DNA of 63,827 nt, counting the filler, from Diploschistes diacapsis (lineage: Eukaryota): the NCBI GenBank assembly GCA_023645945.1. It is 6 parts of 6 records of this genome, joined end to end, with 100 filler letters (N's around TTAATTAATTAA, not from the genome) between each part and the next. Parts side by side here need not be neighbours in the genome. Positions count along the whole stretch, not along the records: positions 42,650 to 53,191 come from JALAIB010000915.1; 5 more parts are not named here. One strand, given 5' to 3'. Shown here piece by piece: positions 40,187-45,523 of the stretch (the first letter of the stretch is position 1; the number at the start of each line of letters is the position of its first letter). The position numbers were made by a program, and so were the translations under genes. The notes below the pieces were generated by a model. It saw nothing but the letters and a program-made list of their open reading frames with translations. It had not been told where the DNA came from and made no database searches.

Positions 40187-41630
40187 ATGGCCGAGGCACC
40201 CATAGGTACGTGAGTCCCATTGGTAACGTTGAATACTCGCGGCTTACGTTGTTGCGCAGTCCTCGATGGCGGGACGGGGTTCCTCAAGGTCGGATATGCC
40301 GCGCAGGTACGAAGCCGCACCACACATGCCGTGGACGCTGCCTACAGCAGGCTCATGCTACGAGTTAGAACTTCCCGGAGCACCAGTACCCTTCAATTGT
40401 CGGAAGACCCATCCTTCGTTCAGAAGAGCGTGCAGGGGATATTGTGGTGAAAGATATTATGTGCGGAGATGAGGCCGCGGCGGCGAGGTCCATGCTGCAA
40501 ATCAGCTATCCTGTAGGTCTAGCAGCATCACGCGCTTTATAAGGGACGCGTAGCTCACCCGGACCGCTCAGATGAACAATGGTATTGTGCAGAAGTGGGA
40601 CGATATGGAGCATCTCTGGGATTTCACATTCGCCGAAAAGCTGAAAATCAACCCTGCTGGCCGAAAGATCCTCCTTACAGAGCCTCCTCTAAATCCACTG
40701 AAAAACCGAGAGCGGATGTGCGAGGTCATGTTCGAAAGGTACAACTTCGGTGGCGTCTACGTTTCGATACAAGCGGTGCTTGCTCTGTACGCCCAAGGGC
40801 TGAGCAGCGGCGTCGTGGTCGATTCTGGCGATGGAGTTACGCATATTGTCCCGGTCTACGAATCTACCGTCCTCAACCATCTCACCAGACGCCTCGATGT
40901 CGCTGGCCGGAATGTCACAAGCAACCTGATCGCCCTCCTTCTGCGCCGTGGTTACGCACTCAACCGAACAGCCGATTTTGAAACCGTGAGACAGATTAAA
41001 GAAAAGCTTTGCTACGTCAGCTACGATCTTGAGCTGGACAAAAAGCTCAGTGAAGACACAACAGTGCTCGTTGACTCGTATACTCTACCAGATGGTCGAG
41101 TGATTCGAATAGGAAGCGAACGATTCGAGGCTCCCGAATGTTTGTTCCAGCCTCATCTGGTCGACGTGGAACAGCCCGGCATAGCGGAGTTTCTGTTCAA
41201 CACTATCCAAGCCGCTGATGTTGATATTCGAAGTAGTCTGTACAAGGCGATTGTTCTTAGTGGAGGCAGCAGCATGTATCCCGGCTTACCATCTCGAATG
41301 GAAAAGGAACTGAAGCAACTATGGCTGACAAAGGTCTTGGGAGGAAATCCAGAACGACTGAATGCAAGTCGTCTGCTCGCTGCCTTCGCATCACCAAGCT
41401 AACAGCTAGCCAGAAATTCAAGGTGAGGATAGAAGACCCGCCACGGCGGAGACACATGGTTTTTTTGGGAGGTGCAGTGCTTGCGAATATTGTATGTTAC
41501 CAATTTTTCAAGTGTCTTCATGATAGTATCTGACCGCGACAAGATGTCAAATCAACCGCAGATGTGGGTTTCGAAGGAAGAATGGCAGGAGCAAGGGCCA
41601 AGGGCTTTGGAGAAATTCGGAGGACGATAG
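40187..41630 (+). CDS. ARP2: Actin-related protein 2 (Arp2/3 complex)
   Basis: [80 protein letters not shown]. Five introns, one GC-AG (41364-41413). Confidence 0.97.
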
Positions 41631-41821: not shown

Positions 41822-42549
41822 ATGACTCTGTACAAAATCCTGATCATCAATCCGAATACGACTGCGTCGATGACTGACGCCCTGATGCCTATTGTAGAAG
41901 GTTTAGACTATAACAATGTAAAGATCTTGTTTCCTTCTCTACCTTCAATATTTGCCCCACTCGGTCGAGACGCTCCTCAAGCACTCAAGCCTTCGGACTT
42001 CGCTCCAGGAGAACATGACATTATCGTCGGCACAGTTATCTGCATACTTCGAATTGGGAGGGGAGCGACACCGTTATTGTCGCTGCCATCCTTTCCCCTC
42101 CCGAGGGAAGACAATGAGGGATTGTTAGAAAACCGGTAGCACGACACACCCCGCATTGCGACATATTGGGTGAAGTTTGGGTACAAGGACGGAACATCAG
42201 CTGCAGCCGCACTGACCGGCTCCCCCTGGGTCTTCCAGTGACTGACTCCTCTTATCTGCGCCAGACGTCCTACACCTACCTAACCAACCCCTCCCCCGAC
42301 GGCCCGGCCTCGATCAACTCCCCCGAAGACGGCATCCTCTCCACGGAGACCATCCTCCCGCACCTCATCCCCCTCCTCCCAGCCCACGACGCCTTCCTCG
42401 TCGCCTGCTACAGCCCGCACCCGCTCGTCGCGCGCCTGCGCTCCCTCCTCCTCCTCCAACCCCCAGCTCCCTCACCATCTTCTTCTTCCGCGCCCAACAC
42501 CGACACCGACAACGACGCCCCGCCCCCGCCCAGACGCAAGCCAGTAACC
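41822..42549 (+). CDS. Asp/Glu/hydantoin racemase family protein (DCG1-like), 3'-truncated by contig end
   Basis: ILIINPNTTASMT; after intron 41918-42264, GPASIN and DAFLVACYSPHPLV. Confidence 0.85.
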
Positions 42550-42649
42550 NNNNNNNNNNNNNNNNNNNNNNNNNNNNNNNNNNNNNNNNNNNNTTAATTA
42601 ATTAANNNNNNNNNNNNNNNNNNNNNNNNNNNNNNNNNNNNNNNNNNNN
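42550..42649. other. Artificial contig spacer
   Basis: N44-TTAATTAATTAA-N44. Confidence 0.99.
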
Positions 42650-42741
42650 TACAGCACGCTTTCCTCCACCCCCCCCTTCCTAAAGCCTCGGCCCTCGCCC
42701 TTCGCCGAATATCAGGTGCTGATGCTATCCGATCCCTTTTG

Positions 42742-44051
42742 CTACTTACTGGACAGCGCAGAAACACCGGGCAGGTCCTTCCCTTCAAGCAGCTCAAGCG
42801 ACGCACCGCCTCCCGTCGACACATGGCTCAGCTTGTCCTCGACGCCATACTTGGCCGCCACTGTTGCCGTGTCTCCGCCACCAATGATGACGATCTTGCC
42901 GTTCTGCGCCGCCTCGACCGCCGCATCTAGTGTCGCCTTTGTGCCCTTGGAAAAAGCATCGAACTCGAACAGACCTGGTGGTCCGTTCCAGAGGATCGTC
43001 TTGGCTTCGCTAATGGCCTCCTTATACAGCTTTAAGCTCTCCTCCCCGTCATCCAGACCCATCCAGCCGTCGGGTATGCCCTGCTCGTCCGTTGCGTGTC
43101 CCGTCTTCGCGTCCTTGTCGAACTTATCCGCCGTGACGTAGTCTACCGGCAGCACGACCTTGACATTATTCTTCTTGGCCTTCTCTATCAGATCACCGAC
43201 CGTCTTACTGCCCGCCTCGTCGAACAGACTGTTCCCGATCTTAACATTATACAGCGTCTTCTTGAATGTGAACGCCATGCCGCCGCAGATTATCAGAGAG
43301 TTGACTTTTGTGAGGAGGTTGTCGATGAGCTGGATCTTATCGGACACCTTGGCGCCACCCAGTATGGCAAGGAAGGGGCGTTGTGGGTTCTCAAGGGCTT
43401 GCGCAAAGTAGTCGAGTTCTTTTTTGACAAGGAAGCCCGAGGCTTTTTGCGGTAGGTCGACGCCGACCATTGAGCTGTGCGCGCGATGCGCGGTGCCAAA
43501 GGCGTCGTCTGACCGGAGCGTTAGCACTCTGCCGGGGAGAAATCCCGGTTCAAGATTGACGCACTGATGTAGACATCCCCTAGCGCTGTAAGTCCCTTCC
43601 TGAACTTCTCCACGTCCGCCTTGTCCGCCTTGACCTTATTCCCGTCCTTATCCTTGCTGCTCCCCTCCTCTTCTGCATGAAACCGCAGATTCTCCAGCAG
43701 GATGACCTCCCCGCCGCTCGCCTTGTTGACGGTCTCCTCCACCTCCGGCCCTACGCAATCGTTTGTGAGGACGACCTTTTTGCCCAGCTGCTTCTCCAAC
43801 TCTGGGACGACCGGTTTCAGCGAGTATTTCTCATTTCGCTTCCCGTCCGGGCGGCCGAGGTGCGACATGAGGACGACGGCCTTGGCGCCATGGTCAATGG
43901 CGTATTTGATTGTGGGCACGGCGCCGACGATGCGTTGGTTGTTGGTGACATGCTGGTCGGCGTCAAGGGGTACGTTGAAGTCGACGCGGATAAGCACGCG
44001 CTTGCCTTTGAGGTCGACGTCGGTTATGGCGAGCTTGTTGGAGAGAGACAT
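42742..44051 (-). CDS. PGK1: Phosphoglycerate kinase
   Basis: [66 protein letters not shown]. Intron 43564-43509. Confidence 0.99.
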
Positions 44052-44674: not shown

Positions 44675-45523
44675 TTATATCTTCTCTGTCTCCGAGGAAT
44701 TGCTAAGACTTAAGTAGCAAGTCCAAATAATACCGATACTAGAGACGAATGGCTGCTCGGTATTAGTATATATGCCTCGAAAACCATGGATGAATAACTA
44801 ACAATCTGGAACTGAACTGGAATGACCCTGAAGTTGAGAATCTGCACAGTAGGCCATATCATCCAGTTAGCCTTCAGTGACGGCAGGTAAATATCCTGAA
44901 ATTTCTTGCTGATCGCCCGACGTCCACCTCCTTCGGCAACGGTCATGAAAGTAAAGAACGTTGCCAAACCGAGCGGAGCAAATATCAACTGGTCGCATGC
45001 CATTCTTTTGAAGGCCGGCAAAGTCCCAGAAGCCTTTGTGACGGGAAAAGCCTTCGACAAGAAAGAGAACCAATGAAACTGGACGGGTGACATGATAAAA
45101 CCATAAGCCATGAATCTGGTCAACCTCTCAAAGTCGAAAGGTGGCGGCTGGTCTCTGGTGTTTGGAACGTATTCGTACTGCGGCAAGGCACTCTTCTTGT
45201 CTATGTCTCTGATCTCAACAGATACCATTTGGTCCTTTGCAGAGCTTTCACGTCGCTTGGATGCCTGTCGCATACGGAACGATGTAAGGGTTTGGGCGCA
45301 AGTGTCGGCTATTCCTCCAAGAATCTACCAGATATGAGCTTCAACCCTTTCTATTATCGTAGTGGTCTATAGCAAATTGGCTCGCTTACAGCGTTGGTGA
45401 TCATGATGGTAAGGACTACAGGATCTGTCAGCAAAGCGAAGCCAGATGCTGTGTCGCAGCCATACCTGGTTTATCAGCGTAGTAAGAGTTGAATTTGGCT
45501 GCAAGCCTAGCTGTGATGCCCAT
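44675..45523 (-). CDS. Mpv17/PMP22 family membrane protein (SYM1-like)
   Basis: FNSYYADKP/VLTIMITNA/ILGGIADTCAQ, FDFERLTRFMAYG, DQLIFAP, NWMIWPTVQILNF, PFVSSIGIIW.CYLS. Three introns. Confidence 0.9.

Follow-up and report, generated by a model that had tools for sequence, protein, structure and literature searches.

The PGK locus of Diploschistes diacapsis raises the question of whether a single gene gives rise to two proteins, a cytosolic enzyme and a minor peroxisomal one, by way of an intron that runs across the stop codon. We examined the gene on the minus strand of a stretch of 63,827 nucleotides of this genome, filler included (hereafter the window). Exon 1 (43565..44051, with its ATG at 44051) matches the Pfam PGK family at positions 1-137 (E 3.6e-50) and exon 2 (42742..43508), which closes with the stop codon of the cytosolic protein (417 aa, -SSK), matches it with an E value of 2.4e-94, so that PF00162 spans both exons at positions 1-137 and 139-379. 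Between them lies the constitutive intron 1 of 56 nt (43509..43564; GTGCGT..CTAAC..CAG), whose removal joins the frame. Exactly these 56 nt are omitted from three contigs of run X1, which represent relatives rather than D. diacapsis itself; at 80% likeness the X1 contigs (share 0.14) comprise 71 records, of which 6 reach at least 90%, and the run is probably mixed. None of these contigs has a junction at the terminal intron described below, and positions 42655-42709 fall outside their cover. The open frame of the short form is intact over all 417 aa, the gene is the single PGK match in the 29-Mb genome, and the human and yeast PGK structures match the protein up to its last residues. Among the best homologues, the closest fungal PGKs are 91% identical and come mostly from lichen-forming ascomycetes; those of other Pezizomycotina reach 87-90%. 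Judged by PGK similarity, the source would fall among the filamentous ascomycetes, with lichen-forming fungi nearest, and the comparison places it no more closely than that.

Directly upstream of PGK is a Mpv17/PMP22-family gene (44710-45324, minus strand). On the other side an Asp/Glu/hydantoin racemase-like gene (41822-42549, plus strand), with an Arp2-like actin-family gene (∼40200-41630) ahead of it, converges on PGK and is truncated by a run of Ns. In the relatives' loci L002-L035, TBLASTN found neither neighbour within 1.5 kb of PGK, the Mpv17/PMP22-family gene included. The N run is an assembly gap (42550..42649) that holds a 12-nt TTAA-type linker, TTAATTAATTAA (42594-42605), with stops in all frames; the linker is an assembly artefact, and both the size of the gap and the join across it are uncertain. 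The PGK contig, C4269, begins at window position 42650, which leaves the candidate new stop 30 nt, and the tail that it closes 30-50 nt, from the contig end. With the contig ending there, at the gap, the PGK 3' UTR and polyA site are missing from the assembly.

The preliminary description of this DNA had proposed a cryptic intron over the PGK stop codon, and the positions given there for donor, branch-like site, acceptor and new stop were all confirmed in the sequence. The gene closes on the minus strand with the codons TCC (42753-42751), AGT (42750-42748), AAG (42747-42745) and TAG (42744-42742). Within these codons lies a 5' donor, GTAAGT (42744..42749), which would cut the penultimate Ser codon in phase 1 and takes in the Lys codon as well as the stop's first base, and the short-form stop (42742..42744) thereby falls inside a putative optional intron of 50 nt (42700..42749). 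A branch-site motif, CTGAT (42711..42715; CTRAY), has its branch A 12 nt ahead of the G of the acceptor. The likely 3' acceptor is AAG (42700..42702), the first AG past the branch motif, and relatives mostly carry AAG at 50-57 nt. A possible second acceptor, GAG (42694..42696), would give a 56-nt intron in the same frame; as the second AG, and a GAG, it is judged less likely. Translation bore out the claim that either choice ends in -PRL. The hidden last coding exon would occupy 42680..42699, with the PRL codons at 42691-42683 and TAG at 42682-42680, giving a spliced protein of 421 aa that ends -RRGPRL in place of the unspliced 417 aa ending -SSK. Two AGs inside the intron (TAG at 42725 and CAG at 42719) were rejected as acceptors: they would leave introns of only 25 and 31 nt and stand ahead of the branch motif. 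The candidate has the U2-type features of a consensus GT donor, a CTRAY branch, an AG acceptor, here of the minority RAG class, and a size within the range of the genome. It is purine-rich, with 36% pyrimidine as against 54% in intron 1. The tripeptide -PRL fits the consensus for peroxisomal targeting signals of type 1 (PTS1), [A/S/C/P]-[K/R/H]-L, as worded in the available part of PMC13343957.

In all likelihood, then, judging from these signals and their conservation, the single PGK gene encodes both a cytosolic -SSK form and a minor, spliced, peroxisomal -PRL form. Most transcripts would retain the 50-nt terminal intron and stop at the TAG at 42744, yielding cytosolic PGK, while a minority would be spliced from A|GTAAGT (42749) to AAG| (42700), deleting the stop and adding a six-residue tail. 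The -PRL end would act as a weak PTS1 read by Pex5, through which a small pool of PGK would enter peroxisomes. Two arginines upstream of -PRL should help receptor binding. The non-YAG acceptor and the purine-rich intron would hold the spliced form minor, and a weak acceptor and a weak signal would both limit the peroxisomal pool. We infer the splicing in D. diacapsis, the minor share of its product, the effect of acceptor and intron, and the import driven by the tail. Among peroxisomal import genes, the genome has three RING-peroxin (Pex2/10/12-type) matches and two Pex14_N matches.

How ordinary such an intron would be in this genome was judged from 174,847 bases of its own DNA, made up of the window and further fetched stretches. 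Donor-branch-acceptor motifs spaced for introns of 45-69 nt numbered 37, compared with 14.5 in shuffled sequence, the excess lying at 45-54 nt. A heuristic search for introns whose removal joins the frame gave 43 candidates, some repeated across phases and false positives included, of 40-86 nt (median 55), with CTGAT as the commonest branch motif (16); the description of 50 nt as a typical size thus held. Acceptors among these candidates were TAG in 18, CAG in 11, AAG in 10 and GAG in 4. The acceptor had also been called weak, a claim that stands in part. In its favour, RAG acceptors make up 5.69% of 2022 introns in Fusarium core genes, where CTRAY accounts for 91% of branch sites, according to the accessible text of PMC5677156, and in 13 of the 14 relatives with a PTS1-like spliced end, described below, the first-listed acceptor that gives this end is AAG or GAG. 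Against it, AAG may be less rare here, and this step of the mechanism is weakened because AAG makes up 10 of the 43 candidates.

The same DNA bears on whether the arrangement is accidental, codon choice having produced a donor-like word and the tail being an accident of the 3' UTR or of the contig end. The shortness of a six-residue tail and the nearness of the N gap speak for an accident. When the 90 nt behind the PGK stop were shuffled 300 times, however, a PTS1-type product arose in just 0.7%, and among 29 A|GTRAGT sites examined in the genome's own DNA the PGK site alone yielded a PTS1-like product.

We turned to relatives' DNA for conservation of the PGK 3' end, as the preliminary description had suggested. 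A metagenome scan gave 80 loci, of which 24 distinct ones from L002-L031 were kept alongside the window; L032-L081 (50 loci at ≤74% identity, bacteria included), five near-duplicates and one locus without the C-terminus were dropped. A GTRAGT donor stands at the PGK position, 5 nt before the stop, in 18 of the 24 relatives (19 of 25 with the window) and is missing in the other 6. At the penultimate Ser, AGT is the codon in 17 of 18 -SSK genes, the window included, compared with 13 of the 119 remaining Ser codons; when AGY codons alone form the background (13/44), the difference gives p 1.3e-8, a value that is overstated, since kin share codons and are not independent. Acceptors were sought 42-100 nt on, with 300 shuffles per locus, and a spliced end of the canonical class [SACP][KRH][LM] was found in 7 of the 18 donor-bearing relatives, or 8 of 19 with the window, where the shuffles predict 0.33. 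When the class is widened to admit xSL and xNL, a step taken after the data had been seen, it takes in 14 of 18 (15 of 19 with the window) against 0.57 expected. The canonical ends are PRL in the window, L002 and L023, SKL in L005, L007 and L008, PKL in L013, and AKL in L016, where the match depends on another donor, 4 nt further downstream. By the rule used, four donor-bearing loci have no PTS1-like end, namely L004 (-TSL), L012 (-STL), L024 (none) and L028 (-ASL, beyond 100 nt). In the 14 relatives the first-listed acceptor giving such an end is AAG in nine, GAG in four and TAG in one, which differs from the 29 YAG acceptors among the 43 own candidates with p 1e-4, though purine-rich sequence favours RAG in any case. 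In locus L021 the upstream intron is missing but the terminal one is present; the locus probably derives from mRNA.

Public gene models point the same way, with the reservation that they are annotations that may or may not rest on RNA. Of the 120 top homologues, four carry a spliced tail, ending -SSL, in their annotation, so that the statement that standard annotation would miss the isoform is usually but not always right. Among 480 proteins fetched, a set that includes searches aimed at PTS1-like tails as well as cluster look-ups, 16 have short PTS1-like tails, and 14 of the 16 are NCBI gene models. Each of these 14 parts from the short form right after ...ALS and continues with a residue that can be encoded by a codon starting with A, which is what cutting the Ser codon in phase 1 requires. 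Aspergillus taichungensis (-NTGSKL) and A. campestris (-STGPKL) both reach 421 aa, while A. candidus ends -SSK at 417 aa; further tails are -TTGPKL in A. californicus, -RAVSKL in the lichen fungus Gallowayella weberi and -RSSSRL in Lophiostoma. For Cadophora gregata both PGK forms are annotated (XP_058351826.1 and XP_058351827.1, the latter being the short one, 'variant 2'). In the Cadophora cluster the two 425-aa 'merc' proteins, which are of transcript type, end -SSK, the spliced tail being absent from both. Two over-long public PGK models (P0255, 1195 aa; P0350, 1087 aa) go on past ...ALS with different sequence, as though gene predictors had used the donor that overlaps the stop and fused PGK to its neighbour. 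With isoforms sharing the same junction in public annotation and canonical ends at 8 of 19 loci, an accidental arrangement is largely refuted by conservation, and we regard it as very improbable. The dual-targeting reading of the preliminary description, by contrast, is supported by these annotated isoforms and by a donor, acceptor class and PTS1-like end that are conserved across filamentous ascomycetes.

A peroxisomal form could instead arise by readthrough of the stop codon, as in Ustilago PGK, without any splicing. The stop stands in the context TAG CAA, a leaky one in yeast, which counts for readthrough, as does a frame open to a PTS1-type end behind the stop of L002 (-PRL), L005 (-SKL) and L010 (-AKL). 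In L002 and L005, where the intron is a multiple of three and no further stop intervenes, readthrough would lead to the tail that splicing would also give; L010 has no donor. Here the extension ends -IST after nine residues, which is not a PTS1, and -PRL lies in another frame, the intron being 50 nt. The efficient fungal context, TGA CTA in the part of PMC4207609 available, is also missing. Because the reading frame ends -IST, readthrough is refuted at this locus, and of the alternatives we considered it receives the least credence, hardly any at all.

Splicing to a -PRL form might also be a thing of the past, with intron and tail inherited from an ascomycete system and splicing or import now negligible in this lineage. 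In Histoplasma, as far as the accessible text of PMC13343957 goes, -PRL took a fluorescent protein to peroxisomal puncta with some cytosolic signal, which its authors called inefficient; none of the other Pex5-dependent proteins found there ends in -PRL, and the sole bearer was not enriched in peroxisomes. Donor or tail has been lost in some relatives, and a predicted PGK splicing event in Yarrowia lipolytica went undetected in RNA-seq according to the part of PMC7491326 available to us. The genome's own GAPDH 3' end (G000:C23:8663-8790; L082, L087) has no cryptic PTS1 by readthrough (ends -KTS) or by shifts of the last-intron donor or acceptor to nearby alternative sites. Against a relic, the terminal intron of D. 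diacapsis has diverged in sequence from those of relatives while its donor, branch motif and acceptor, the frame and the tripeptide have all stayed intact, and -PRL or -PKL recurs in L002, L013, L023 and two Aspergillus models. We consider a relic improbable, though less so than an accident, and retain the reading of a working minor isoform.

In this respect GAPDH here is unlike that of A. nidulans; another of its frames ends -IRL, which is not a standard signal. The predicted product of the TPI last exon (G000:C385, L084) ends -ARL, a canonical PTS1-type end at an ordinary stop, and TPI may be a second glycolytic enzyme with dual targeting. In reviews available in part, the role proposed for such a peroxisomal pool is in redox and energy balance of the peroxisome.

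A more speculative extension, which we put forward as a doubtful possibility, is that the acceptor forms a conserved dial, AAG or GAG being kept over CAG or TAG in filamentous ascomycetes and holding peroxisomal PGK low, and that loci with an in-frame intron (L002, L005) or with donor loss (L010) represent an evolutionary bridge between splicing and readthrough. Neither idea was found in the literature searched, which excluded the 2012 paper of Freitag and colleagues and its supplement. That paper (Freitag, Ast and Bolker 2012, Nature 485:522) is reportedly the source of the A. nidulans PGK peroxisomal splice isoform, to go by the papers that cite it. The natural panel of tails (PRL, PKL, SKL, AKL, SNL, xSL), together with a conserved poor acceptor, could serve to test how the peroxisomal share is set. 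For D. diacapsis itself the gene model is corrected to two isoforms from one PGK gene. The published, conserved event thereby gains a further filamentous ascomycete, and no new mechanism is opened.

That event is already published for the same gene: the available text of PMC3597508 describes PGK splicing as conserved in Ascomycota, and, of the kinds of precedent named in the preliminary description, splicing of A. nidulans PGK to a peroxisomal form and readthrough in U. maydis PGK are both backed by PMC3798809 and PMC12316961, as well as by PMC9549241 and PMC3798556, in the portions of these reviews at hand. In its workings the event proposed here resembles the published ascomycete one, to which its position very probably makes it orthologous. 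A. nidulans PGK is the closest parallel, the same gene in the same subphylum acquiring a C-terminal PTS1 through alternative splicing, and the identity of the junction is deduced from its congeners. The other Aspergillus models diverge at the same codon as D. diacapsis PGK, two of them also at 421 aa, and differ in the tail, which is -SKL or -PKL where D. diacapsis has -PRL. In Cadophora gregata, Drepanopeziza, Rhynchosporium and Tricladium the short -SSK and long forms likewise part after ...ALS, but the tail is longer than in D. diacapsis and ends -SSL. In U. maydis the outcome is the same, a minor peroxisomal enzyme pool from a single gene, for PGK and TPI (readthrough) and for GAPDH (alternative splicing), whereas the D. 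diacapsis PGK readthrough frame yields no PTS1. The MDH of Aspergillus fumigatus and Lipomyces, in the available part of PMC7491326, shares the logic of a retained last intron that holds the stop of the major form and is spliced to give a PTS1; it is a different gene, in which the PTS1 comes from a distal UAG acceptor and an AAG acceptor restores the cytosolic end.
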